NCBI GenBank assembly: GCA_963828165.1
Contig: CAWHDR010000001.1
Coordinates: forward strand, 1,760,001-1,824,000
DNA from: an uncultured Chloroflexia bacterium
GTDB taxonomy: Bacteria; Chloroflexota; Limnocylindria; Limnocylindrales; CSP1-4
Direction: 5' to 3'
Length of the DNA stretch: 64,000 nt
Shown: one piece after another, positions 3,997-21,159 of the stretch
Layout: every line of letters starts with the position of its first letter
How positions within the stretch are numbered: the stretch's first letter is position 1
Translations under genes and position numbers: made by a program
The notes under the pieces: model-generated
Told to the model about the DNA's origin: nothing
Databases searched by the model: none
Seen by the model: the letters and a program-made list of their open reading frames with translations, nothing else

Positions 3997-5028
3997 TCAG
4001 CTCGGCGCCAGCGGCGTGGAGTAGATCCTGGTGAGCAGGAACTGGTCGTCGATGTGCGGCCCCTGGAACTCGGCTCCGTGGCATGTCGCCTTAGACCCGA
4101 CAAAGCCGCCAGTTGTGATGTGCATCAACCCAAGGACGTGGCCGACCTCATGACAGATCAGCGGGTTCCAGTTGTTACTGGAGCCCGTGGTGGCGTTGTT
4201 GATCTTGACGAAGCCTGAGTTGTAGTACTGGGGAAACGTCGACTGGGCGATCGACTGCGCTCGTGCATAGGCATCGTCGTTGGGGTCGTTGTACTCGAAG
4301 AAGATGACGGCGTGATCGCCCCCCACCGTCGCGGTCCAATGGGGGCTGGGCCCGGTCAGATCCTCGTACGCCTGCAGCACCGCGTTGATGTCCGAGTTCG
4401 GCGAATTCTCGAGGTTCTGGAGGCTCTGGTCGAGGTGATACTTGATCGTGATGGGGCCGCCCGTCGCCGTGGTCCGCCATCGATGGCAGTAGTCACCGGG
4501 TGTGTCATCGCAGGTGTACGGGGAGTTCGGGTAGTTGCCGTCGTACTGCGCCCACATCAGCGAGCGTTTCGTGATGGCCGTCCGCCATGCACCTCCGTGG
4601 AAGATCTCGCCCTTGGCGAGGAAGGCGGGCCGATCCCGGTACTGCTTGCTCCAGCCGCTGTCCGTCGCGCCGCCCCTTGCGCTGAGCCGGTCGGTTTCGG
4701 TGTAGATGGTGGGCGTCGCGTCGTTGGGCGTGTCGTACGTGTACAGCCGCTCGCGCGAATCCACGGCACTCGAGGTCAGGTTGTAGACGCGAGACCAGAC
4801 CGTCGCGCAGTGCACGGACTGGCGGAGTTCGACTCGGCCGATGACGGCGCCTGACGACGACAGGATGTTGGCGCTACTGAGGACATACACGGTGTGGCTG
4901 CCATCGCCGCAGACCGTCGTACCCGGATTCGTGCCGTCATATGGCAGCGCGAGCGCGGGGGTCGCTGATCCGGCCAGGGTGGTTCCGGCGATGGTCATGG
5001 CGAGCAACAAACGCCGTGCGGTCCTCAC
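3997..5028 (-). CDS. Secreted zinc metallopeptidase (metzincin-type) with DUF2690-like N-terminal domain
   Basis: Sec signal ending ALA; YDGTNP..C..VELRQS..C..WSRV; HEVGHVLGLMH (HExxHxxGxxH). Confidence 0.75.
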   Translation of the reverse strand: MRTARRLLLAMTIAGTTLAGSATPALALPYDGTNPGTTVCGDGSHTVYVLSSANILSSSGAVIGRVELRQSVHCATVWSRVYNLTSSAVDSRERLYTYDTPNDATPTIYTETDRLSARGGATDSGWSKQYRDRPAFLAKGEIFHGGAWRTAITKRSLMWAQYDGNYPNSPYTCDDTPGDYCHRWRTTATGGPITIKYHLDQSLQNLENSPNSDINAVLQAYEDLTGPSPHWTATVGGDHAVIFFEYNDPNDDAYARAQSIAQSTFPQYYNSGFVKINNATTGSSNNWNPLICHEVGHVLGLMHITTGGFVGSKATCHGAEFQGPHIDDQFLLTRIYSTPLAPS

Positions 5029-5148
5029 GGTTCCCCTCCGCTGCTGTCATCTCCGCTTCACAATGAGGCTGCCGCGGACCTTAGCAGCGCCGCGTCGCGT
5101 TCCTGTCGCGGTACCGGTTTCCGATCGCCTGTGGTTTCGCGCTGGAGA

Positions 5149-8823
<3,675 letters not shown>

Positions 8824-8944
8824 GGGCGGCTTCGAAACGCTCCTGTCGCGTCGAGCGCGACGCGCGCCGCGAAGGTGTGCGCCCGCTCGGAGGTAGAATC
8901 CCTCCCCACGCTGACCGCTGACCGTTGATCGGAGCCCGCCCGCC

Positions 8945-9658
8945 ATGAAGATCTTCCTCGACACCGCCGACATCGAAGAGATCCGCACCGTCGCCCGCTG
9001 GGGCATCCTCGACGGGGTGACCACGAACCCCACGCTGTTCTCGAAGACCAGCGGCATGAGCTACGAAGAGGTCCTCAAGGAGATCTGCTCCATCACGAGC
9101 GGACCCGTGTCGGCCGAGGTGGTCGCCGAGGACGTCGACGGCATGCTCACCGAGGGTCGGGCCTTCGCGAAGCTCGCCCCGAACATCGTGGTCAAGGTCC
9201 CGATGAGCGAAGAGGGCCTCGAGGCGATGAGCCGCTTCGCCGACGAGGGCATCAAGACCAACTGCACGCTGATCTTCACCGCCAACCAGGGACTCCTGGC
9301 CGCGAAGGCGGGTGCCAGCCTGCTCTCACCGTTCGTCGGGCGGCTCGACGACATCAACCAGGACGGGATGATCGTGGTCCGTGAACTGGCGGAGATCGTC
9401 GCCATCCACGAGCTCGATACCGAGGTGCTCGCGGCCTCCATCCGTACCCCGGTGCACATGACCCAGGCGGCCCTGGCGGGCGCCCACGTTGCGACGCTCC
9501 CGTTCAAGGTCCTCAAGCAGATGGTCCGCCACCCGCTCACTGACAGCGGCATCACCCAGTTCCGCTCCGATTGGGAGAAGGCTCGCGAGGCGCTGGCAAC
9601 ACAGGACGGCGGCGAGAAGAAGGAAGTCGCGGCCACGGCGGCCAAGCCCGGCGAGTAG
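8945..9658 (+). CDS. tal: Transaldolase / fructose-6-phosphate aldolase (short TalC/FsaA type)
   Basis: MKIFLDTAD, GVTTNPTL, VVKVP, SPFVGRLDD, AASIR. Confidence 0.93.
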   Translation: MKIFLDTADIEEIRTVARWGILDGVTTNPTLFSKTSGMSYEEVLKEICSITSGPVSAEVVAEDVDGMLTEGRAFAKLAPNIVVKVPMSEEGLEAMSRFADEGIKTNCTLIFTANQGLLAAKAGASLLSPFVGRLDDINQDGMIVVRELAEIVAIHELDTEVLAASIRTPVHMTQAALAGAHVATLPFKVLKQMVRHPLTDSGITQFRSDWEKAREALATQDGGEKKEVAATAAKPGE

Positions 9659-9724
9659 CTCGCGCCGGCGGATCGGTACCGAGCGTCCGGCCGTGCCATC
9701 ATCGATGATCGAACGAGGTCAGCG

Positions 9725-11545
9725 GTGAGCTCGGATCAGGACCGCTCGGAGGACCCGCCCGTGGCAGTGACAGAGGAGATACTCGGGCAGTTCCTGGGCG
9801 ACGAGGCGTTCCCCGTGACCTGGGAGTCCGACGTCGAGAAGGACTTCTTCTGGGTCTACGACGACCTGCATTGCCCCCACCCGGTCAGCCCGATGTTCTT
9901 CGACATCGGTGGTTGGTGGCTGAGCTGCGACCACATGTTTCGTCGGTTCGGCACGCCGTTCGCGGTCGACTGGCTGGCCAAGAACGTCAACGGCTACGTC
10001 TACACGACGGCCATCCCGGCCGATCCCGATCTCCGTATCGACGCCACCGAGTACAGCTCGCGCTACCAGGCCCGCGTGCCGCGCGACACCTCGTTCGCCG
10101 ACAACATGGGCGCCTACCTCGACACGGTCCTGCCCGTTTATGGCGAGCAGTTCGCCGGCTGGTGGCACGACCGGCTCGTGCCCGAGATGCAGCGCAACTT
10201 CGCGTCGCTCGAGGAGCGCCTCGACGCCGCCGCCGGGATGTCGCTCGCCCAGGTGTCGGTGCTGCTCGAAGACGCGATCGACATGCACGATCGCCACTGG
10301 AAGATCCACTGGATGCTCAACTTCGCCCAGCTGTCGGCGACGCTGAACCTGCGCGCGGTGATGGAGAAGCACCGCGGTGGAGTCGATGAGCAGTTGCTCG
10401 GGCGACTACAGAATTCCGCTTCCGACCGCAACTGGGACTCGATCGAAGCGCTCTGGGAGATGAAGAACGAAGTCCGTGACGACGCCGAGCTGCGGACGGC
10501 ATTCGCCGCCGGCGGGGTCCCCGAGATCGTCCGGAACCTCAAGGGGACGGAACGGGGCAGGCGGTTCATCACGGAGCGCGTCGAGCCATATCAGCGAGAG
10601 TTCGGCTGGCACGCGGTCTGGAGCCACGAATTCATCTTCCCAACCGTGCGTGAGCACATGGAGCCGGCCATCGAGCTCGTTCGCGGCTACCTCCTGACGG
10701 ACTACGACTACCCGACTGCGATCGAGGCGATGCGCGCCGACATCGAAGCCGCATCGCGCGAGATCCTCGAGGGCCTCAGCGGGGACGCCCTCGAGGAGAT
10801 GCGTGCGGCGAACGCCGTCAACCTGCGGATGGCGCCACTCACGCCCGACCACCACTTCTACATCGACCAGGGGGCCAACGCCCACGTTCGACTCGTCCTC
10901 ATCGAAGTGGGGCGGAAGCTCGTCGACGCCGGCCGCCTCGATCAGCCGGACGACGTGATGTTCCTGCGCTACTACGAGCTCCGCAGCCTGATCGGGAGCG
11001 CGAGCGCCCTCGATGGGCGGTCTCTGGTCGCGGCGCGACGCTCCGAGCGCGAGGCAGCCGCCCGCCTGCACCCGCGCGACTGGGTCGGCACGGTGACGCC
11101 GTCGCAGCTCGCCTTCCCGTATCTCGTCAACTGGGGCTACCCGGACCGCTTCTACCAGACGCAGTCGAGCGATGAGCGATTGATCACGGGGATCGGCGGC
11201 TCGCCAGGCGTGATCGAGGGCGTCGCCCGGGTGGTGCGAACCGTCGACGAGTTCGATGAGGTCCGTGACGGCGACATCCTGGTCTGCCAGATGACGAACC
11301 CGGCCTGGGTCGTCCTGTTCACGAAGATCGCGGGGCTCGTCACCGACACCGGCGGCACCACCTCGCATCCAGCCGTGCTCTCGCGCGAATTCGGGATCCC
11401 CGCGGTCATCGGCACATCGGTGGCAACGCAGCGCATCGTCACCGGCGACCGCATCAAGATCGATGGGACGGCCGGCAGCGTGGAGATCCTGCGCGCCGAG
11501 GCGGCCCGACCAACGGCCGCCGCGGCGTCCGCGATCGGGTCATAG
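9725..11545 (+). CDS. PEP-utilising enzyme: helical substrate-binding region plus C-terminal phospho-His swivel domain, no ATP-grasp domain
   Basis: C-terminal GSPGVIEG..R..GDILV...T.P.W...GG.TSHPAVLSREFGIPAV..G; upstream region with G.L.QPDDV.FL resembles phenylphosphate synthase alpha / rifampin phosphotransferase; start 9725 or 9761. Confidence 0.8.
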   Translation: MSSDQDRSEDPPVAVTEEILGQFLGDEAFPVTWESDVEKDFFWVYDDLHCPHPVSPMFFDIGGWWLSCDHMFRRFGTPFAVDWLAKNVNGYVYTTAIPADPDLRIDATEYSSRYQARVPRDTSFADNMGAYLDTVLPVYGEQFAGWWHDRLVPEMQRNFASLEERLDAAAGMSLAQVSVLLEDAIDMHDRHWKIHWMLNFAQLSATLNLRAVMEKHRGGVDEQLLGRLQNSASDRNWDSIEALWEMKNEVRDDAELRTAFAAGGVPEIVRNLKGTERGRRFITERVEPYQREFGWHAVWSHEFIFPTVREHMEPAIELVRGYLLTDYDYPTAIEAMRADIEAASREILEGLSGDALEEMRAANAVNLRMAPLTPDHHFYIDQGANAHVRLVLIEVGRKLVDAGRLDQPDDVMFLRYYELRSLIGSASALDGRSLVAARRSEREAAARLHPRDWVGTVTPSQLAFPYLVNWGYPDRFYQTQSSDERLITGIGGSPGVIEGVARVVRTVDEFDEVRDGDILVCQMTNPAWVVLFTKIAGLVTDTGGTTSHPAVLSREFGIPAVIGTSVATQRIVTGDRIKIDGTAGSVEILRAEAARPTAAAASAIGS

Positions 11546-12420
11546 CCCTGCGTCCCTTCGAGTACGAGCGGCCGACCCGCCTCGGCGACGCCATCGCGCT
11601 GCTCGCCTCGGGGGATTCCGAGGCGCGCCCCCTGGCGGGCGGCACGGACCTGATCATCCGACTCCGCGATGGGACGATCCGACCGCGAACGGTGGTGGAC
11701 ATCAAGGGGCTCGCCGAGCTCGATGGCGACATCCGAGAGGACGACGAATCGCTGAGGATCGGGGCTCGGACCGTGATGACGGACATCGTCGGCGACGAGC
11801 GCATCCGGCGTGACTATCAGGCACTCGCCGAGGGGGCGGCCGTAGTGGGTTCCGCCCAGATCCGGAACCGGGCGACGCTGGCCGGCAACATCTGCAACGC
11901 CTCGCCGGCGGCCGACACGGCGCCGGCACTCCTCGTGTACGGCGCGGTGGTCACCGCGGCGGGACCGACGGGCAGGCGGCGCATCGCGATCGACGACTTC
12001 TTCGTGAGCTCCGGCGTCACGACGTTGGCTCCCGGCGAGCTTGTGACCGCGATCGAGTTGCCACGCTCGCCGATCCGGCAAGGGGCCGTCCATGTTCGGC
12101 GGACCCGACGGCGTGGCCACGACCTCGCGTCGGTCACGCTGGCCTGCGCGGTCCTGGCCGACAGGGTCACCCGGCTGGCCTTCGGAAGTCTCGGGCCCCG
12201 GCCGGTCCTGGTCGTCGACGAGACGGGTGTCCTGGCCGATCCAGCAGCGCCGGACGACGCAAAGATGCGGCGGCTCGAGGAGCTGTTCGTGGATGCCAGC
12301 CCGTCCGCGCGTTCGATGCGAGCCAGCCCGGAGTACCGGCTGGCGATGCTGCGCGTGCTCGGCCTTCGGGCGGTTGAGAAGGCGATCGCGCGGCTGGCTG
12401 ATGGGACCGGCCGGGTATGA
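11542..12420 (+). CDS. Xanthine dehydrogenase family FAD-binding (medium) subunit
   Basis: PFEYERP..L..A, PLAGGTDL, QIRNRATLAGNICNASPAAD, ASPEYR; no ATG/GTG/TTG before the conserved N-terminus, probable ATA (11542) or CTG (11548) start. Confidence 0.9.
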   Translation: MALRPFEYERPTRLGDAIALLASGDSEARPLAGGTDLIIRLRDGTIRPRTVVDIKGLAELDGDIREDDESLRIGARTVMTDIVGDERIRRDYQALAEGAAVVGSAQIRNRATLAGNICNASPAADTAPALLVYGAVVTAAGPTGRRRIAIDDFFVSSGVTTLAPGELVTAIELPRSPIRQGAVHVRRTRRRGHDLASVTLACAVLADRVTRLAFGSLGPRPVLVVDETGVLADPAAPDDAKMRRLEELFVDASPSARSMRASPEYRLAMLRVLGLRAVEKAIARLADGTGRV

Positions 12421-12980
12421 CAACGACACGACGGATCGAGATGGCGGTCAACGGCCGCGCTCGCTCGATCGAGGTCGCGGCGCACCACACGCTCCTCGAG
12501 GTCCTGCGGGACGATCTCGGGCTCACCGGGACGAAGGAGTGCTGCCTGGTCGGCGAGTGTGGCGCCTGCACGGTCCTGATCGATGACGTCAGTGCCGATT
12601 CGTGCTTGGTCCTCGCAGCCGAGGTGGACGGCGCGAGCGTCACGACCGTCGAGGGTCTCGCCGACGGCGGTACGCTCCATCCCCTGCAGCAGGCCTTTCT
12701 GGATACGGGCGCCGTGCAGTGCGGTTTCTGCATCCCGGGCCAGCTGATGGCGGCGCGGGCACTGCTCGCCGAGAATCCGCACCCATCGCGCGCTGAGATC
12801 GAGGAAGGGCTAGCCGGAAACCTTTGCCGGTGCGCCGGGTACGAGCAGATCATCGAGGCGGTGTCGGCAGCGGCCGCCGTCGGGGAGACCGGCGGCCACG
12901 CTGTGCCTGCCGCGCGAGCCCAGGCGCCAGCAACCAGGGATCGATCATCGACCCCTGACGCCGACGTCGCGCCGCAATGA
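12417..12980 (+). CDS. Xanthine dehydrogenase family 2x[2Fe-2S] (small) subunit
   Basis: GTKECCLVGECGACTV..C; QCGFCIPG; GNLCRC. Confidence 0.95.
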   Translation: MTTTRRIEMAVNGRARSIEVAAHHTLLEVLRDDLGLTGTKECCLVGECGACTVLIDDVSADSCLVLAAEVDGASVTTVEGLADGGTLHPLQQAFLDTGAVQCGFCIPGQLMAARALLAENPHPSRAEIEEGLAGNLCRCAGYEQIIEAVSAAAAVGETGGHAVPAARAQAPATRDRSSTPDADVAPQ

Positions 12981-15233
12981 CGGGGAGCGTTGGCACGTCG
13001 CCCTCCAGGGTCGGCGGCATCGGGCGCGTGACGGGTCAGCAGGCGTACGTCGCGGATCTCGACCTCGATGACGTCCTCCACGTGAAGCTCGTCACGGTCG
13101 ATGCGGCCCGCGCGCGGATCGGGGAGATCGACGCTCGCGCGGCCCTGGACGTACCCGGCGTCCGGCTGGTGATGACCGCCGCCGATCTGCCGCAACCGCA
13201 TGCCGCGCTTCGGGCCGCAACGTCGAGACCGTCCGGTCCTGGCCGTCGGCGAGACGAAGTACCACGGTGAGCCCGTGGCGGCGGTCGCGGCCGAGACGTC
13301 CGATGCGGCCGAGGAGGCAGCCCGACTCGTCCGCATCGCCTGCGAGGAGCTGCCCGCCAACTACACCCTCGCCGCGTCGCTGGCGGATGGGGCACCGCTC
13401 GTCCAGGACCCGTCCATCCGGCCGGACGATCCGCACGCCGGGACGAACGTCCTCAGCGAGCACCGCTACGGCTGGGGCGATCTCGACGCGGCGATGCGCG
13501 AGGCGGACGTCGTCACCGAGGGCACGTACACCTTCCCGATGGTGACGCAGTTCGCGATCGAGCCCCACGCGTTCATGGCCGCACCCGATGGCGACGGCAT
13601 CGCGATCTGGAGCGCGATCCAGCACCCGTACTGGCTGCAGCGTGTCATCGCAGACCTGGTCGACCTGCCACTCGCCAAGGTCCGGGTATTCGCGCCAGAC
13701 CCCGGCGGGGCGTTCGGTGGCAAGCAGCACGCGAAGTACGAGCCGCTGCTCGCGTTCATGGCGCTCAAGACGGGCCGCCCCGTTCGGCTCGTCCTGACCC
13801 TCGAGGAGACGTTCCAGGCCGTTCGTCGCGGGGCCGCGCAGGTGCGCGTTCGGTCCGGGTTCCGCCGCGACGGGACCCTCGTCTTCCGCGAGATCGACGC
13901 GGACTACCTGATCGGGGCGTATGCGGACATCGCCGACCGAACCGTCGCCAAGGGCAGCTACACGTCCGGCGGACCCTATCGATGCCCGGCCACAAGGATC
14001 GTCGCCCGGAGCGTGCTGTCGCACACCGTCCCGTCCACCGCGTTCCGGGGCTTCGGCAATCCCCAGCAGATCTGGGCCGTCGAATCGAGCATGGACGAGG
14101 CGGCCGTGCAGCTCGGGATCGACCCCCTGGCGCTCCGTCTCATGAATCTCGCCGGACCCGGCGAGGTCTTCCTCCCGGATGACCGGCCCGCCGACGGCGA
14201 CTGGGCCCAGACCGTGAACCGCGCCGCCGAGCTGATCGGCTGGGGGACACCGGTGCCGCCAGGTCGCGGGCGAGGGCTCGCGGTCGGTCTCAAATCCGGT
14301 CCGACGACCGGTCTGTCGTACTCCACGGTCCGACTGCTCGCCGACGGCAGCGTCGTCGTCAACGCGGGCACGTCGGACATGGGCCAGGGCGCTCGGACGA
14401 TCTTTGCCCAGATCGCGGCGGGGGAGCTCGGCGCGCCATTGGAGTGGGTCCGAGTCGTCATGGGCGACACCGCCGTCGTCCCGTACGACCAGCAGACGTC
14501 GGCGAGCCGTTCGTCCGTGCTGATGGGCAACTCGGTCCTTCTCGCCTGCCAGGACGTCCAGACCAAGATCCGGGCGATGGCGGCACGGCTCGAGTCCGTC
14601 GAGGCGGACGCCGTCGAGGTGTCGCGCGGCGAGGTCCGGATCGGCGACCGGGTCTCGCCGATCCGCGACATTCTGGTCCGAGGTCTGGGTCGACTCGGCG
14701 GGGAGCTCATCGGGATCGGCGAGGCGCGCAAGGAGGCCGAGCCGGAGCATCCCCTCGGGGGGACTGCCGCGTTCTACGAATTCAATTGCACGGCGGTCGA
14801 GGTCGAGGTCGACCGGGACACCGGCGATGTCGTCGTCGCCCGCTACGTCACCGTTTCGGACGTCGGCAAGGCGCTGAACCCAACGCAGGTCCGCGGCCAG
14901 GACGAGGGCGCGGCGATCATGGGCCTCGGTCATACGTTGATGGAGCAGTACATCTACGACGACACAGGGCGGCTTCGGAACCTCGGTGCCATCGATTACC
15001 GGATCCCGACGAGCATGGACCTGCCCCTCCAGATGGAGAGCGACATCGTCGAGAACGAGGACGGTCCAGGGCCGTATGGCGCCAAGGGCATGAGTGAGGG
15101 CGCGCTGCTCCCGGTCGCTCCGGCCGTGGCAGCCGCGGTCCGTGACGCGACCGGCGTCGTCATCCGCGACCTGCCACTCACGCCGGAGCGCGTCTGGCGC
15201 GCGCTTCAGGACGCGGACGTGGAAGCCTCGTGA
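12977..15233 (+). CDS. Xanthine dehydrogenase family molybdopterin-binding (large) subunit; +1 frameshift near 13199
   Basis: RVTG...YVAD N-terminus joins PRFGP..GGAFGGK, FRGFGNPQ, GQG, SASRS, GAKGMSE after removing one base. Confidence 0.9.
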
Positions 15234-17383
15234 CCTACGCCTTTCCCCTCGACGGGTCGCATCCCGGCACGCTCGACGACGCGAAGGCACTCGTCGGTGG
15301 CAAGGCCGCGAACCTCGGCGTCATGGCGCGTGACCTCGGCCTCCCGGTGCCGCCGGGCTTCGCGATCACCACGGCGGCCTGCCGCGAGTTCCTGGCCACC
15401 GGCTGGCCAGCCGGCCTCGACGATGAGATCCGCGCCCGGATGGCCGACGTCGAGACCGCGGTCGGGCGGCGCTTCGGCGACCCGTCGGACCCGCTCTTGG
15501 TCAGCGTCCGGTCGGGAGCCCCTGTTTCGATGCCCGGGATGATGGACACGGTCTTGAACCTCGGGCTGAACGACGCGACGACCGAGGGCCTGGCTCGGGC
15601 CGTGGACGACGCCTTCGCCCGGAGCTGTCGGGAGCGCTTCGTCGCGAGCTTCCGTTCGATCGTCGGCGTGGCCCACGTCCCCGAGGATCCCTGGCTCCAG
15701 TTGCGCTCGGCGATCGAAGCCGTCTTCCGTTCCTGGAACAGCGATCGTGCCAGGACGTACCGCCGCAAGGAGGGCATCCCCGACGACCTCGGGACGGCCG
15801 TCACGGTCCAGGCGATGGTCTTCGGCAATCGGGGTCCGGATTCGGCCACCGGTGTGCTGTTCACTCGCAACCCGGCGACCGGGGAGTCCGCGCCATACGG
15901 CGACGTGATGTTCGACGCCCAGGGTGACGACGTCGTGGCCGGAACGCATCAGACCGAGCCGATCGCCGTTCTCGACGAGCGCATGCCGTCAGTCGCCGCC
16001 GAACTACGCGATCACGCGGCGCGGCTGGAGCGGCACTACGCCGATCTGTGCGACATCGAATTCACGATCGAGGACGGACGGCTGTGGATGCTCCAGGTCC
16101 GGGTCGGCAAGCGCAGTCCGCAGGCGGCGCTGCGGATGGCCGTCGACATGGCCGAGGACGAGTCGTTTCCGCTCTCGCGAGCTGAGGCGGTCGACCGGGT
16201 CGCGTCACTGCTCGCCGATCCGCCCGAGGTCGCGACGGGTCGCAGCGGCGTGGCCGCGCCCTTGACCGTGGGGCTGCCGGCCTCGCCAGGAGTGGCGAGT
16301 GGCCCGATCGTCACGAACCCCGAAGCGGCCGTGGCCGCCGCAAGCGAAGGACGCGCCGCGATCCTCGTCCGTGCCGAGACGTCCCCCGACGACGTGCACG
16401 GCATGGCCAAGGCGGCGGGGATCCTGACATCGCGGGGCGGCCTCGCGAGCCACGCTGCGGTCGTCGCGCGCGGGTGGGGCATCCCGGCGGTGGTCGGTGC
16501 TTCTGGGATCGAGGTCCGCGATGGCGCAATGGTCGTGGGCGACCGGACCCTCAAGGCCGGCGAGGTCGTCACGATCGACGGCGGCACCGGTGAGGTCTTC
16601 GAAGGCTCGGTCGCCGGCGCGACGGAGCCGATGCCGGAGGCGCGGACGCTGCTGGCCTGGGCGGAGGAGCACGGGATCTTCGTCGACGACGCCACGGCCG
16701 TCATCGCGGAGCCCACCGAAGCGGCCGCGAGCGAGCCCTCAGGGGCTTCCGCGGCGGCACACGACGTCTCGGCGGACGACTGCGTCCGGGCCCTCGCGAT
16801 CAAGGGCCTCGCCCAGGTCGAGGCGGTCGCCGACGTCGTCTTCTCCACGGCTGACGACGCCCGCCCGATCCTGGACCAGCTCGTCGCCGACGGGCTGGTC
16901 GCCTCGGTCGCCGGCGCCTACAAGCTGACCGAGTCCGGTACGAGCCGGGCGGCCGACGTGCTCACCGCAGAACGAGAGGCGTGGGGCACGGAACCCGCCG
17001 CTGCCGCGCTCGATGCGTTCCTGGGCCTCGACCACCGGGTGAAGGTCATCGTTACGGCCTGGCAGCTCCGCGGCGACCCGGACAGCGGCGTCGTGAACGA
17101 CCATTCGGACACGGACTACGACCGCGATGTGCTCGAGCGCCTCGCCGCCCTCCACGCGGATGCGATGTCCTGGCTGACGCCCCAGGCCGAGGGCCTCAGC
17201 CGACTGGCCGACTATGGCGTCCGGCTCGGTCGCGCGGTCGAGGCCGCCGCGGGCGGGGATAACCGGTACGTGGCCTCACCGCGCGTCGACAGCTACCACG
17301 GCATCTGGTTCGAGCTCCATGAGGACCTCATCCGCCTCGCCGGTCGTACGCGCGAAGAGGAGTCGGCCGCCGGCCGCGCGTAG
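15230..17383 (+). CDS. PPDK-like protein: ATP-grasp and phospho-His domains fused to a winged-helix/helical C-terminal domain instead of the PEP/pyruvate TIM barrel
   Basis: GGKAANL, VPPGF.ITT, LVSVRSGA..SMPGMMDTVLNLG, DIEFTIE, RGGLASHAAVVARG; C-terminus L..L...GLV....Y.LT..G and SYHGIWFELHEDL. Confidence 0.85.
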   Translation: MTYAFPLDGSHPGTLDDAKALVGGKAANLGVMARDLGLPVPPGFAITTAACREFLATGWPAGLDDEIRARMADVETAVGRRFGDPSDPLLVSVRSGAPVSMPGMMDTVLNLGLNDATTEGLARAVDDAFARSCRERFVASFRSIVGVAHVPEDPWLQLRSAIEAVFRSWNSDRARTYRRKEGIPDDLGTAVTVQAMVFGNRGPDSATGVLFTRNPATGESAPYGDVMFDAQGDDVVAGTHQTEPIAVLDERMPSVAAELRDHAARLERHYADLCDIEFTIEDGRLWMLQVRVGKRSPQAALRMAVDMAEDESFPLSRAEAVDRVASLLADPPEVATGRSGVAAPLTVGLPASPGVASGPIVTNPEAAVAAASEGRAAILVRAETSPDDVHGMAKAAGILTSRGGLASHAAVVARGWGIPAVVGASGIEVRDGAMVVGDRTLKAGEVVTIDGGTGEVFEGSVAGATEPMPEARTLLAWAEEHGIFVDDATAVIAEPTEAAASEPSGASAAAHDVSADDCVRALAIKGLAQVEAVADVVFSTADDARPILDQLVADGLVASVAGAYKLTESGTSRAADVLTAEREAWGTEPAAAALDAFLGLDHRVKVIVTAWQLRGDPDSGVVNDHSDTDYDRDVLERLAALHADAMSWLTPQAEGLSRLADYGVRLGRAVEAAAGGDNRYVASPRVDSYHGIWFELHEDLIRLAGRTREEESAAGRA

Positions 17384-17403
17384 TTAACCCAGCCTTGGGA
17401 CAT

Positions 17404-17424
17404 GACACTTTGCGACGCTTGCGT
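17404..17424 (+). repeat. 21-bp imperfect direct repeat, copy 1
   Basis: GACACTTTGCGACGCTTGCGT, 19/21 identical to 18755-18775. Confidence 0.6.
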
Positions 17425-17507
17425 CGCCGGGACGTGCCCACCACGACGATGATCCGGATCACGCTTGACTCACGACCGGCGAGGGGCACGCTGCTAGGCT
17501 CATCGCG

Positions 17508-18032
17508 ATGGCGAACGTGAAGAATCCTCGCTTGACTGCGTCTGACGGGTGGCTGCTCGCGGCGCTCACTGAGAGCTCCCGCGACGGACGACCGGTGACG
17601 TTGCGCTGGTTCATCCACGATGCCGACTGGCTGAACCGGGCGATCCCGACGTTCGACGAGATCAGCTACGGCATGCCGCGGCTCGTGGCCGCCGGGTACG
17701 TGACTGTCGACGGGCTATCCTTTCGAGCCACGCCCAAGGCCACGAAACTGCGGGAGCTCGTGGACGCGGGGACGGTAACACTCGGCGGCGTTATCGTCGG
17801 GATGGAGCGAGCCGTCGAGGCCCTTGGCGATGCCTCTCAGGAGCCCGAGGATCGCTCGCTTGGCAGGTTGCCGGGCTTTTCGCCTGGCGACCTCGCAGCG
17901 GCCGTGCACGAGCACGGAGCCTGGGTGGAGCGGTGGTCGCGCGTCGTCGTCCTGCCGGCTGTCGCCGCGATGAGGCTCGGCACCGCGATCGGTTCGGTGC
18001 TCGTTCGCATCCGCGACCGCCGGGCCCGATAG
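17508..18032 (+). CDS. Hypothetical protein (possible winged helix), probably leaderless
   Basis: TAGGCT 7 nt before ATG; AD..NRAIPT.DEI..G..RL...G. Confidence 0.7.
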   Translation: MANVKNPRLTASDGWLLAALTESSRDGRPVTLRWFIHDADWLNRAIPTFDEISYGMPRLVAAGYVTVDGLSFRATPKATKLRELVDAGTVTLGGVIVGMERAVEALGDASQEPEDRSLGRLPGFSPGDLAAAVHEHGAWVERWSRVVVLPAVAAMRLGTAIGSVLVRIRDRRAR

Positions 18033-18186
18033 AACATTCCGGACGCTGAGCGACCTCTCTATTGTCATTGACGCACGCTTTGCGAGCCGACCGACTTCGC
18101 CCTCGAACCGAGGTTCCCCTATGCGGATACATTGCCGGTCGATGACATCTCCCATGCCTCGTTCGTCTCGATGCACGACCCGCAAC

Positions 18187-18725
18187 GTGGCTAGCCGTAC
18201 GACGAAGGCTCATCGCGGATCGATCGGTTTCCGCATCTTCTGTGGTCTCATCGGGGTATCTGTCGCCTGCATCGCGTTCGGTAGCGTCGTCGCGATCGCG
18301 TCCGGCGGGTATCGACCCGAGGTCTATGCCGGCGGGTTCGATCCGATCCGTGCCAGCATGGTGCTGGCGTTCGTGCTGTTGACCGTCGGCTTTGGCCTTC
18401 CGTTGGGCGCAGCGCCCCTCCAGTGGCTTCGCGAGGGTGAGCGGCCCAGTCTGGCAGCCATGGCCTTCTGGGCTGGGCTCACGATCGCTGGCGTCTCGAT
18501 CGTCTCGGTGCTCACATCACCGATACGGCCAAATGGGACGCTGGCGGCACCCGAGTGGTCCCGAGCCGGGTCCTTCTCGGCCTGGGTCTGCTGGTCGCGG
18601 GGATGCTCACAGCCGCGGCCAGCAGCGTCATCGAGTCGATGCGGCGGCGGGACTGGTTCCATGTGACTTTGGCGCTCGTCGCGGCCGGGTTGATCGGACT
18701 GTTTGTCTGGTATCGGCTGACCTAG
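18187..18725 (+). CDS. Hypothetical multi-pass membrane protein, frameshifted near 18550
   Basis: Hydrophobic helices in the 18121 ORF frame continue in another frame as VVPSRVLLGLGLLVAG..ALVAAGLIGLFVWYRLT*; start uncertain. Confidence 0.5.
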
Positions 18726-18754
18726 CATCGTCGTCCGCTCCGGTGTCATTGGCG

Positions 18755-18775
18755 GACACAGTGCGACGCTTGCGT
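18755..18775 (+). repeat. 21-bp imperfect direct repeat, copy 2
   Basis: GACACAGTGCGACGCTTGCGT. Confidence 0.6.
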
Positions 18776-19039
18776 GCTCTACGCCCGAAGGTGATGACGA
18801 GGTGAGCCGATGACTCTGGTTGCGATCGAACCAGCGGGCGAGCTCCCGAACCTCCGCAGGGCGCGTGGCTCAGGTGGTCTCGATCCGTCCTCCGAGCGGT
18901 TCGATGGCCCGATCCAGGTCCGCGCGGGACTCGATCACTGCGAGGTCATCCCGAAAGGGCGGCTGCGGAACGGACCAGAGTGATCCCATAGTGGCCCACT
19001 GGAGCCGCGCTCGAGGCGCCTCGTTCTAGCATGGTGGCC

Positions 19040-19357
19040 ATGACGTCCTCGCCCGCCCGACCCGCCATCACGAATGCCGTCGCGCGCGAGCGTTACGAGG
19101 CGCATCTCGACGGTGAGCTCGCGGGCGTCCTCGAATACAAGGTCAAGCGCGGGCGGATCGCGCTCATCCATACGGAGGTGCTGCCCGTTCATGAGGGCCG
19201 CGGTGTGGGGTCTGCGCTCGTCCGCTTTGCGCTCGATGACGCTCGTCGGCGCAACCTGCGGGTCTTCGCGACCTGTCCGTACGTCAAGGCCTATCTGACG
19301 CGACACCCGGAGGTCGCCGACATCGTCGTCGGGAGCGGTCGCGCGAGCAACGAGTGA
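19040..19357 (+). CDS. Small GNAT acetyltransferase (YjdJ-like), probably leaderless
   Basis: HTEV...EGRGVGS.LV..AL...R......CPYV..Y; TAGCAT 7 nt before ATG. Confidence 0.88.
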   Translation: MTSSPARPAITNAVARERYEAHLDGELAGVLEYKVKRGRIALIHTEVLPVHEGRGVGSALVRFALDDARRRNLRVFATCPYVKAYLTRHPEVADIVVGSGRASNE

Positions 19358-19375
19358 CGCCGTTGCGCCGGAGGC

Positions 19376-20269
19376 TCAGCGGCCCTTCGAGTACCCCGTG
19401 GCGGTCAGCTTGTCCCAGAGCGAACCGGCGTTGTTGTTCTGGATGTGATCCATCATGTAGCCCTGCCCGACATCGACCGGGCCGAAGGCATCGTCGAACC
19501 GGACCCGCTCGACGGTTTCCTCCCGTGTCCAGCCCTTGGCGACAGCGTCGGCGACGGCGGCCTTCCAGACAAGCAGCACGGCCCGCTGGGTGTCCACGTA
19601 GCTGAGTGGCTGCACCGGTCCGTGCCCAGGCACGACGTGGTCGACGTCCAGCTGGCGGATGCGCTCCAGCGCCTCGATCCACTGGTCCACGTCCGACGTC
19701 ATCAACCATGTCTGACACTCGCTGAAGATCGTGTCGCCGGTGAACACGACGCGCTCCTCCGGCACATGGACGGCCAGCTGGCCCGGCGTGTGGCCGGGGG
19801 TATGGAGCAGGTGGAACGTGTGGTCGCCGACACGAAGCGTCAGGTCGCCGGTGAAGACGACGGTGCCCTTGTTCGGATCCTCGTAATAGACGTCACGGTC
19901 GGGAATCAGCGGCGCGGCCTCGGGATCATCGGTCGGGATGGCCTCGAGCGCGTAGGCGAACGGGTCCAGCGCGGCACTCGGGTCCATGAAGTTGTCGTAC
20001 AGGCCTTGGTGGTTGACCACCGGCACGCCCTTGAACCAGTAGTTCCCGAAGATGTGGTCGACGTGATGTTCCGTGTTGATGAGGTAACGGATCGGCCCGT
20101 GCGTCTCCGCTTCCGCGCGCATCGCGATCGCTCGCGTCGGCAGCTGGGGCGTGTCGATGTGGACGACCCCATCGGCCGTCGTCACGAAGCTCGGATTGCA
20201 GCCGCGCAGCTTGGTCGTCGTGTAGACATTGGGCGTGACGCGCTCGAGCTCGATGGCGGCGGTCGCCAT
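19376..20269 (-). CDS. Metallo-beta-lactamase-fold hydrolase (cyclase/lactonase-like)
   Basis: INTEHHVDHIFGN (first His of HxHxDH replaced by Glu), PGHT, FTGD, VPGHG. Confidence 0.85.
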   Translation of the reverse strand: MATAAIELERVTPNVYTTTKLRGCNPSFVTTADGVVHIDTPQLPTRAIAMRAEAETHGPIRYLINTEHHVDHIFGNYWFKGVPVVNHQGLYDNFMDPSAALDPFAYALEAIPTDDPEAAPLIPDRDVYYEDPNKGTVVFTGDLTLRVGDHTFHLLHTPGHTPGQLAVHVPEERVVFTGDTIFSECQTWLMTSDVDQWIEALERIRQLDVDHVVPGHGPVQPLSYVDTQRAVLLVWKAAVADAVAKGWTREETVERVRFDDAFGPVDVGQGYMMDHIQNNNAGSLWDKLTATGYSKGR

Positions 20270-20271
20270 CG

Positions 20272-21057
20272 CTACTGGGTCGCCGTCAGGCCGCCGTCGA
20301 TCCCCAGGATCTGGCCGGTCACGAACGAGGCGGCGTCGGAGCACAGGAAGATCGCCGGGCCGACGATGTCGCGCGTCTCACCGACCCGCCCGAGCGGGAT
20401 CCGGTTGACGATGCCCGCCTTGAACTCCGGGTCGGCCAGCAGCGACGCGACCTGCGGTGTATCCACGAAGGTCGGCATGATCGCGTTGACGCGGATGCCG
20501 TGCGGCGCCCACTCCGTCGCCCACTGGCGGGTGAGCGAATTGATCGCGCCCTTGGCCGCCACGTAGGCCGAATAGCCGGCCTTGATCCCGAGGTTGCCGC
20601 GGACCGACGAGATGTTCAGGATCCGGCCGCCGCTGCCCTGGGCGATCATCTGGCGCGCCGCGGCCTGGGTCGGGACGACCGTGCTGCGCACGTTCAGGTC
20701 CATGATCCAGTCCCAGTCCGAGCGGGGATAGGTCTCGGCGTCGTGCAGGACCTTGCCGGCGCCGCCGCCGACGGCATTGATCAGGATGTCGAGCCGGCCG
20801 AATCGCTCGACCGACTCGCGGACCAGCCGATCGGCGTCCGCCTCGTCCGTCGCGTCCGCCACGACCGCCAGACCTTCGCCGCCGGCGGCCTCGACCTGCG
20901 AAACAGTGGTGTCGAGCGACTCCCGCGTCCGCCCCCCGACGACGACGTTCGCTCCGGCCCCGGCGAGGGCCACCGCCAGCGCCGATCCGATGCCACCGCC
21001 ACCACCCGGGACCAGGGCGACGAGGCCGTCCAGGCTGAAGTCGTCGAGTCCGGCCAT
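20272..21057 (-). CDS. SDR family oxidoreductase
   Basis: PGGGGGIG, YVAAK, IRVNAI.P, FVTGQIL..DGG. Confidence 0.92.
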   Translation of the reverse strand: MAGLDDFSLDGLVALVPGGGGGIGSALAVALAGAGANVVVGGRTRESLDTTVSQVEAAGGEGLAVVADATDEADADRLVRESVERFGRLDILINAVGGGAGKVLHDAETYPRSDWDWIMDLNVRSTVVPTQAAARQMIAQGSGGRILNISSVRGNLGIKAGYSAYVAAKGAINSLTRQWATEWAPHGIRVNAIMPTFVDTPQVASLLADPEFKAGIVNRIPLGRVGETRDIVGPAIFLCSDAASFVTGQILGIDGGLTATQ

Positions 21058-21159
21058 CGTGCTCCCTTCAGGTTTTGGTCGATTATCGCGTAGCGCCACT
21101 GCGGAGCGCCGCGAACGAGCGGGTCGGTCTGACGCCGACGTGGCCTTCCGGCGTACGAT

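Follow-up and report, generated by a model that had tools for sequence, protein, structure and literature searches.

We analysed a stretch of 64,000 nucleotides (hereafter the window) from an uncultured soil Chloroflexia bacterium (GTDB Limnocylindrales, CSP1-4; assembly GCA_963828165.1, contig CAWHDR010000001.1, forward-strand positions 1,760,001 to 1,824,000), whose closest relatives are Chloroflexota genomes assembled from metagenomes and labelled Limnocylindria or Limnocylindrales. The subject of this report is a cluster of five genes, A to E, all on the forward strand between positions 9725 and 17383. B, C and D encode the flavin (FAD), double [2Fe-2S] and molybdenum-pterin subunits of an enzyme of the xanthine dehydrogenase (XDH) family, and they are flanked by A and E, which encode two partial phosphoenolpyruvate (PEP)-utilising proteins. 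A first-pass annotation made from the sequence alone had described these domains and proposed that the two flanking proteins form a kinase pair that acts together with the molybdenum enzyme. The domain content is borne out by Pfam, and the joint action is supported by the co-conservation of the genes, by family matches and by published work.

All domain and fold assignments given here come from sequence and profile comparison. All three subunits of the molybdenum enzyme are recognised by Pfam (Table 1) and correspond to the three-subunit bacterial type of the XDH family. An intact orthologue of D has as its closest solved chain 1rm6_A, the alpha subunit of 4-hydroxybenzoyl-CoA reductase (3e-98), with quinoline 2-oxidoreductase next (8e-76), and both of these enzymes share the three-subunit build. 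The glutamate of the motif KGMSEG in D (15096-15098) is conserved, as had been claimed, in a segment that aligns with AKEASEG of 1rm6_A, and we take this residue to be the catalytic base. The subunits do not reach the cut-offs of the 4-hydroxybenzoyl-CoA reductase models (alpha 436.9 against 994.55, beta 124.5 against 404.55, gamma 178.1 against 257.8), and D scores equally well on the XdhA model as on the HcrA model (436.9 bits). B, at 290 amino acids, holds only two cysteines and, unlike its counterpart in HcrABC, has no cysteine-rich insertion. We know of no kinase that works with HcrABC or with quinoline 2-oxidoreductase. The stop/start coupling that the first-pass annotation ascribed to all five genes holds at three junctions, by ATGA between B and C (12417-12420), ATGA between C and D (12977-12980) and GTGA between D and E (15230-15233); it fails between A and B, where the TAG of A is followed by no canonical start.

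Gene A ends in a PEP-utilizers mobile domain (Pfam, residues 514-584, E 9e-25) with the catalytic His548 (11366-11368) in the motif TTSHPAV, and this histidine is invariant in 23 of 23 aligned sequences. Residues 1-492 have no match in Pfam, as scanned with a library that lacked PF27448, the accession listed for A homologues in a large protein database. The protein aligns with the NCBIfam models of RedH, PigC and rifampin phosphotransferase (RPH) over residues ~185-590, every score lying far under the family cut-off, and no NCBIfam cut-off is reached by any model; residues 389-589 match PDB chain 5fbs_A at 3e-26. A thus combines an RPH-like substrate domain with a swivel histidine ~50-60 residues from its C-terminus, as do the corresponding components of the two-component dikinases HpeHI, CreHI and PpsAB. 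These NCBIfam and PDB matches support the earlier comparison of the kinase pair with split phenylphosphate synthase and RPH. The same three kinds of domain make up RPH, PigC and RedH, whose substrate and swivel parts align with A, but those enzymes are single chains of ~860-880 amino acids, whereas here the domains are split over two proteins. In the start region of A (9698-9727) the window reads ATC where relatives have ATG (MIDD...), so that the gene probably starts at GTG 9725, with GAGG ~9 nt upstream. The same genome holds a second, distant A-like gene (contig C1 of the genome, 2527191-2528795; locus L142, 9207-10904, reverse strand; 29% identity over 583 amino acids), which has neither an XDH-family nor an ATP-grasp gene as a neighbour in the 9 kb to each side.

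Gene E supplies the separate ATP-grasp component expected of a two-component dikinase (PPDK_N, 3e-51 in Pfam). Its first 480 residues are 43-49% identical to many pyruvate phosphate dikinases (PPDKs), and the protein passes the NCBIfam model NF004531 for the truncated 'PRK05878' form of PPDK (507.9 bits, cut-off 456) and fails the full-length model TIGR01828 (521.4 against 843.45). Neither A nor E matches the PEP/pyruvate-binding TIM barrel in Pfam, and E, being without this barrel, cannot be a pyruvate dikinase; what it shares with PPDK and with the 'PRK05878' form is the ATP-grasp/swivel portion, to which an extra C-terminal domain is added. The swivel motif LASHAAV includes His408 (16451-16453, in GGLASHAAVVARGW), and both the histidine and the motif GGLASHAAVVARGW are invariant in all 20 orthologues aligned.

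The C-terminal domain of E falls into no known family. Across the 20 orthologues its winged-helix-like part is moderately conserved and its helical end nearly invariant, with the motifs NDHxD (17096-17110), SPRVDSYH (17276-17299) and WFELHE (from 17306) and a C-terminal AAGRA; a profile of the domain finds weak matches only, to winged helices of the MntR/IdeR/MarR type (E 0.008-0.3). It is 34% identical (2e-30) to a free-standing 206-amino-acid protein on the Diaphorobacter plasmid NZ_CP049906.1, encoded there between a 572-amino-acid PEP-utilizing enzyme and a 506-amino-acid truncated PPDK that is 45% identical to E. Homologues of the tail occur in 22 plasmid records, mostly of Rhodococcus, Streptomyces and Mycobacterium, where they are annotated as MarR or hypothetical and, in the cases inspected, adjoin genes for a truncated PPDK and a PEP-utilizing protein. 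Since these homologues stand free beside truncated PPDKs, E is a fused form of two components of a broader dikinase module, one that is also found where XDH genes are absent. On plasmids of Diaphorobacter, Mycobacterium and Rhodococcus the XDH-free module consists of a PEP-utilizing enzyme, a ~200-amino-acid homologue of the tail (free or fused to another enzyme), a truncated PPDK of ~460-540 amino acids and often a DUF7065 protein, and it adjoins ring-hydroxylating dioxygenases, acyl-CoA dehydrogenases or P450s. A 205-amino-acid protein of the Thermomicrobium cluster considered below was rejected as a counterpart of the tail, having no similarity to it; that protein is DUF4202-like.

Table 1. 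Positions of the five genes, of their parts and of associated features, in the window unless another locus is named.
Feature	Position	Strand	Description
Gene A	9725..11545	+	606 aa; PpsA/HpeH/CreH-like; helical substrate-binding domain and C-terminal swivel domain
Gene B, FAD subunit	11548..12420	+	Pfam FAD_binding_5 (6e-49) and CO_deh_flav_C; presumed CTG start
Gene C, two [2Fe-2S] clusters	12417..12980	+	Pfam Fer2_2 (3e-32) and Fer2; ATGA overlap at each end
Gene D, N-terminal piece	12977..13198	+	First half of a/b-hammerhead; Ald_Xan_dh_C profile positions 1-60; frame opening at 12977
Extra base in D	13199..13199	+	Moves the Mo-subunit reading frame by one; blastn against L024
Gene D, main piece	13200..15233	+	Rest of hammerhead (Ald_Xan_dh_C 68-110), MoCoBD_1 (1e-66) and MoCoBD_2 (5e-67)
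Gene E	15230..17383	+	717 aa; PPDK_N and PEP-utilizers domain, then extra C-terminal domain
Gene E, N-terminal two thirds	15230..16666	+	PPDK-type ATP-grasp and own swivel domain; Pfam PPDK_N, PEP-utilizers
Gene E, C-terminal domain	16706..17383	+	~210 aa; weak winged-helix region and helical part; preceded by a linker of very variable length
Metallo-beta-lactamase-fold hydrolase	19376..20344	-	Pfam Lactamase_B; accompanies the cluster in relatives
Short-chain dehydrogenase	20272..21099	-	Pfam adh_short_C2; accompanies the cluster in relatives
PF04199 gene, L134	16607-17488
PF04199 gene, L138	3672-4559
PF04199 gene, L139	2924-3802
PF04199 gene, L104	9397-10119
PF04199 genes, L132, L133, L140 and L141
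XDH-free module, L105 (NZ_CP049906.1)	10227-15027
XDH-free module, L107 (NZ_CP076857.1)	7275-13530
XDH-free module, L106 (NZ_CP079228.1)	4939-10979

A lack of co-conservation across genomes had been named at the outset as an outcome that would speak against a common function, and the comparison favours the idea. Species-representative genomes were scanned with an alignment of A, which gave 582 confirmed relatives; of the best 80 loci, 70 have B, 61 C, 59 D and 50 E, and 49 have all five genes (thresholds: 40% identity, 30% query cover), most of the others being cut by contig ends. The ten loci without B break off at most a few hundred bases past A, the regulator or the P-loop gene described below or, as in L098, leave only ~1.7 kb on the side where B lies in the divergent arrangement. 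Eight of the ten loci that have D and no E end in or just past D; L097 and L102 have no E despite room beyond D. The cluster is retained in three arrangements, namely co-linear, with A (together with the regulator, the short-chain dehydrogenase (SDR) and the metallo-beta-lactamase (MBL)-fold hydrolase) divergent from B-E, and with E detached or inverted. Among the five-gene loci the MBL gene is present in 31 of 49 and the SDR gene in 28 of 49, at three different positions relative to the cluster.

The same pattern holds within the genus. Sixteen of 24 same-genus genomes have an orthologue of A, 12 one of D (E ≤ 1e-150) and 11 one of E, every carrier of D or E being among the 16, while the eight genomes without A have neither D nor E at completeness values of 59-95%, three of them at 91-95%. 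Within the genus the cluster comes and goes as a whole. One sister genome (G016) carries two diverged copies, at C5 255000-272000 (L017) and C1 222000-240000 (L022), whose A proteins are 82% and 68%, D proteins 81% and 75% and E proteins 70% and 65% identical to those of the window, as expected of a catabolic module that diversifies towards different substrates.

Two further genes are found in most relatives. In the 70 loci with A and B, a GntR/FCD regulator is present in 53 and a P-loop protein in 56, both in 44 and neither in five; the window and L015 are of the type with neither. In its 56 loci (e.g. L014 6874-7776; L046 12528-13427) the P-loop gene separates the FAD subunit gene from A or from the regulator, and it encodes 290-300 amino acids with the P-loop GGESNHGKS and a mean column identity of 80%. 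It belongs to no Pfam family, and its only profile match, to the kinase-1a/P-loop segment of ATP-dependent PEP carboxykinase (PEPCK), is marginal (E 0.01). Our guess is that it might act on the TSH motif as a regulatory kinase, in the manner of PPDK regulatory proteins. The genome of the window, which is 87.7% complete, yielded no copy of it. The ~300-amino-acid 'hypothetical' genes that adjoin those for PEP-utilizing enzymes on plasmids of Diaphorobacter and M. avium were considered as homologues of the P-loop gene and rejected, since they show no similarity to it; both encode DUF7065 proteins, 35% identical to each other.

Beyond the close relatives, an even sample of the phylum (401 genomes of 217 genera) yielded an A orthologue at E ≤ 1e-80 in 31 genomes over 17 genera. 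Ten of these loci, from six families, were compared: XDH-family FAD, iron-sulphur (Fe-S) and molybdenum genes lie beside A in all ten, and a GntR gene in eight. Five are of the type seen in the window, with the order B-C-D and E fused with the tail, and four of these have the P-loop gene. In the other five an unrelated stand-alone ATP-grasp protein of ~320 amino acids takes the place of E, A is 50-59% identical, the gene order is FAD-Mo-FeS and the XDH subunits are just 29-51% identical to those of the window; this second layout is annotated on the Thermomicrobium roseum plasmid NC_011961.1. A thus stays with an XDH-family enzyme while both its ATP-grasp partner and the XDH lineage change, from which it would follow that A together with any ATP-grasp protein forms a kinase serving the molybdenum enzyme. 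This exchange of partners is the strongest comparative argument for such a role. A PF04199 'putative cyclase' of the formamidase/isatin-hydrolase type is encoded in four of the five loci of the second type and in three loci of the first type from other genera, sometimes with a Zn-dependent alcohol dehydrogenase. No PF04199 gene lies near the cluster of the window, where the MBL hydrolase and the SDR accompany the cluster instead.

The copy of the cluster in the window departs from these relatives in ways that bear on its activity. Gene D, which the first-pass annotation had read as one gene, is divided over two frames: the hammerhead, and with it the Ald_Xan_dh_C match, is split between a frame opening at 12977 and the frame 13200-15233. 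The extra base at 13199 is the sole uncompensated indel of one nucleotide from pyrG to E in a blastn comparison with the nearest relative, L024 (87-91% nucleotide identity). We rejected a programmed frameshift because relatives have D in frame, as in L013, L015, L017, L021, L022 and L023, where it occupies a single frame. At the junction of A and B, the GntR and P-loop genes of most relatives have been deleted, which is why B abuts the stop codon of A (TAG, 11543-11545); L024 keeps a 72-nt spacer at this place (11818-11895) that resembles the first codons of the lost regulator. The frame of B has no ATG, GTG or TTG after this stop before 11692, already inside the FAD domain, and at 11548, two bases after the TAG, the window has CTG where relatives have ATG (MRAF...).

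The copy in the window may be inactive, or the frameshift at 13199 may be an assembly error. One 270-nt contig from a public run bridges the A-B junction (11317-11586) without a gap, while contig cover from four public runs is patchy and gives no usable cover at 13199. Sister assemblies made of few long contigs show many frame breaks in the same cluster genes, and a single extra base is a typical error of assemblies of that kind, which makes an error at 13199 plausible. It is possible, though we incline the other way, that the copy is a decaying remnant that has lost its regulator and P-loop genes and the start of its FAD subunit, carries a true frameshift in its molybdenum subunit and makes no active enzyme. 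The deletion that leaves the stop of A two nucleotides from B, the CTG in place of ATG and the extra base are three independent departures from the relatives within 1.7 kb; to these may be added the change of A's own ATG to ATC, and the gap-free public contig speaks for the junction as assembled. Set against decay, compact A-B junctions without GntR and P-loop genes but with a good ATG occur in L015 and L024, a CTG is usable as a start after a closely preceding stop, and the remaining residues of D, including the catalytic motif, are intact, with a third-position G+C of 0.88 like that of neighbouring genes. The question of decay concerns this copy and leaves the function of the family untouched; either answer is compatible with the catabolic interpretation proposed below.

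The first-pass annotation knew of no characterised pathway with this layout, a statement that is out of date, since the 3hpd cluster of Ensifer adhaerens HP1 precedes it (10.1101/2020.01.08.898148). According to the available text of that report, the XDH-family enzyme HpdA1A2A3A4 alone does not convert 3-hydroxypyridine, the addition of orf9 ('pyruvate-phosphate dikinase') and orf10 ('PEP-utilizing protein mobile subunit') enables it to do so, disruption of either gene abolishes growth, and the product is 2,5-dihydroxypyridine (10.1101/2020.01.08.898148). In the same text a GntR gene is adjacent, and similar clusters are given for 21 genera of Actinobacteria, Rubrobacteria, Thermoleophilia and Proteobacteria, Chloroflexota not being among them (10.1101/2020.01.08.898148). 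The two systems have in common an XDH-family Mo/FAD/2Fe-2S enzyme adjoining PEP-utilizing and PPDK-like genes, and a GntR gene in 3hpd as in most relatives of our cluster, a likeness at the level of gene descriptions. HpdA differs in having a fourth, separate and essential SRPBCC subunit with a signal peptide (HpdA3), and 3hpd also holds the maleamate-pathway genes hpdBCDE. Our literature searches returned no later paper explaining the dependence of HpdA on the kinase genes and none on the Limnocylindria cluster.

A biochemical precedent for the kinase pair itself is HpeHI, described in the available part of its report as a two-component RPH homologue that phosphorylates hydroxyphenylethanones, with HpeI as the ATP-grasp part and HpeH as the RPH-like substrate and swivel part; the swivel histidine of HpeH is essential, HpeH alone transfers phosphate between phenolic compounds, and CreHI and PpsAB are homologues, the mechanism running via a beta-phospho-histidine (PMC12167813). 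A corresponds to the H/A component of these systems, with its substrate domain and a swivel histidine near the C-terminus, and receives its ATP-grasp from a second protein. The enzyme downstream is a molybdenum hydroxylase here, whereas theirs is a carboxylase or a P450. The dependence of an XDH-family hydroxylase on a dikinase pair is already in the literature, and a system of this kind is not categorically new. What differs here is the phylum of the host, a PPDK-like partner that has a histidine of its own and a fused tail, a PEPCK/HprK-like P-loop gene that is optional, and a locus at which no SRPBCC subunit or maleamate-pathway genes were seen.

We propose, with a probability of roughly 55%, that the cluster encodes a catabolic module whose two enzymes, a small-molecule dikinase and a three-subunit molybdenum hydroxylase, share one substrate, a hydroxy-(hetero)aromatic compound being activated by phosphorylation before it is hydroxylated. 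E would bind ATP in its PPDK-type ATP-grasp domain and pass the phosphoryl group to His548 of A, either directly or via its own His408. A would then transfer it to a hydroxyl or enol oxygen of the (hetero)aromatic substrate held in the RPH-like helical domain, and B/C/D would hydroxylate the phospho-ester, not the free compound, with water. The phosphate would afterwards be removed by a hydrolase or returned to the histidine of A. The chemical rationale would be that an O-phosphate withdraws the electron density that a free phenolate-like oxygen would donate, leaving a ring carbon more open to the molybdenum-bound hydroxide. The SDR and the hydrolases of MBL or cyclase type might suit later steps, such as the opening of a lactam, although this is speculative. 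We infer the order of these steps, the phospho-ester as the substrate of the molybdenum enzyme and the nature of that substrate.

Several points weigh against this proposal. No intermediate was seen in the 3-hydroxypyridine work, whose authors, in the available text, left the role of orf9 and orf10 open (10.1101/2020.01.08.898148), so that direct phosphorylation of the substrate is a hypothesis even in the precedent. HpeI is a protein of ~40 kDa with an ATP-grasp only and no swivel, while E has a conserved swivel histidine of its own and a ~210-amino-acid domain of no known family, and the path of transfer may differ from that in HpeHI. No SRPBCC/CoxG match was obtained among the genes scanned in or beside the cluster, and annotation of the interval from 3997 to 25818, made without reference models for the maleamate-pathway enzymes, showed no genes of that pathway. 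No dedicated phosphatase was identified, and casting the MBL hydrolase in that role is a guess. In the window's own copy D is broken, and B has no canonical start. Finally, related genomes are not independent samples, and the counts given above describe a pattern and carry no statistical test. As a separate matter, the MBL hydrolase was considered as the counterpart of the phosphatase of a known dikinase pathway, which was not supported: HpeD of the Hpe pathway is NagD-like and not of the MBL type, and the word 'lactamase' is not mentioned in the available part of that report (PMC9618137).

A more elaborate scheme, which we regard as doubtful, is a multi-histidine phosphorelay new to the PEP-utilising superfamily. 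The truncated PPDK would charge its own His408, the His/Asp-rich tail of E would dock on A or relay the phosphoryl group to His548, and A would make a (hetero)aryl phosphate that is the true substrate of the molybdenum hydroxylase. The phosphate would then return to His548 and ATP would only prime the cycle, which would explain why no intermediate is found in the 3-hydroxypyridine system.

Less likely again is an ATP-driven reductive dehydroxylation, in which a phenolic hydroxyl group would be converted to a phosphate ester and removed reductively by the molybdenum enzyme with phosphate as the leaving group. The closeness of D to 4-hydroxybenzoyl-CoA reductase among solved structures invites this thought, and XDH-family dehydroxylases are reported for urolithins. 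The beta subunit of 4-hydroxybenzoyl-CoA reductase has an extra [4Fe-4S] loop, and B, with 290 residues and two cysteines, cannot carry this additional cluster. D falls well short of the HcrA cut-off and scores the same with XdhA, and in the sole genetic precedent the reaction of the XDH-family enzyme that needs a kinase is a hydroxylation.

We think it improbable, and more so than dehydroxylation, that the kinase pair phosphorylates or regulates a protein (the molybdenum enzyme or a regulator) instead of a metabolite, with the winged-helix-like tail of E sensing a signal or binding DNA. The weak MntR/IdeR/MarR resemblance of the tail and the MarR annotation of its free homologues would suit such a function, as would the PEPCK/HprK-like P-loop protein that many relatives carry in addition and the lack of a detected intermediate in the 3-hydroxypyridine study. 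The most conserved part of the tail, however, is the His/Asp/Glu-rich helical part and not the winged helix, most clusters already have a separate GntR regulator, and A keeps a large RPH/PigC-like substrate domain that binds small molecules in all characterised relatives. That the kinase and molybdenum genes are mere neighbours with unrelated functions is hardly credible, for although the 29%-identical A-like paralogue in the same genome lacks XDH and ATP-grasp neighbours, and plasmids of Diaphorobacter, Mycobacterium and Rhodococcus carry A-like, PPDK-like and tail modules but no XDH genes with them, the linkage survives rearrangement, the genes are lost together, the association recurs in six families with non-orthologous parts, and a genetic precedent exists.

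The surroundings of the cluster are as follows. On its 5' side lie a CTP synthase gene (pyrG) and a short transaldolase/FSA gene, and on its 3' side, on the opposite strand, the MBL-fold hydrolase and the SDR. The G+C content of the window is ~70%, with a drop to 0.66 across 18001-20000. The open reading frames at 17508-18032 and 18121-18666, which lie between the cluster and the MBL gene, match nothing in Pfam or NCBIfam and lack counterparts in the 80 related loci; the DNA that contains them (17384-19375) may be strain-specific. An open frame of 1302 codons on the reverse strand (5149-9057), antisense to the CTP synthase and transaldolase genes, fails a filter on codon-position G+C and is probably an artefact of high G+C rather than a gene. 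Scans of the window found no Rfam family, no tRNA and no useful match to PHROGs; between 8700 and 19500 no promoter-like sites were found, and the single terminator-like site there is within chance. Public sequencing runs resembling the window share only small parts of it (0.05-0.13) and come from soil and rhizosphere metagenomes, and no RNA runs holding window sequence are listed among the public runs found.

The comparison across the phylum means that the pairing of a kinase with a molybdenum hydroxylase is not peculiar to one plasmid: in several Chloroflexota families XDH-family enzymes come with a linked PpsA-like protein, in two independently assembled versions. Intact copies of the cluster exist elsewhere in the phylum, so that the lineage offers many natural variants. 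If phosphorylation does precede hydroxylation, this would be a new way to prepare electron-rich hydroxy-heteroaromatics for nucleophilic attack by Mo-OH, and a function would fall to the widespread 'truncated PPDK' proteins as well as to a family of ~200 amino acids now annotated as MarR or hypothetical. Should the multi-histidine phosphorelay prove true, 'phospho-activated molybdenum hydroxylation' would be a general strategy in soil bacteria. The practical gain would be that the catabolism of N-heterocycles and phenols by abundant, uncultured bacteria of the soil could be annotated better.

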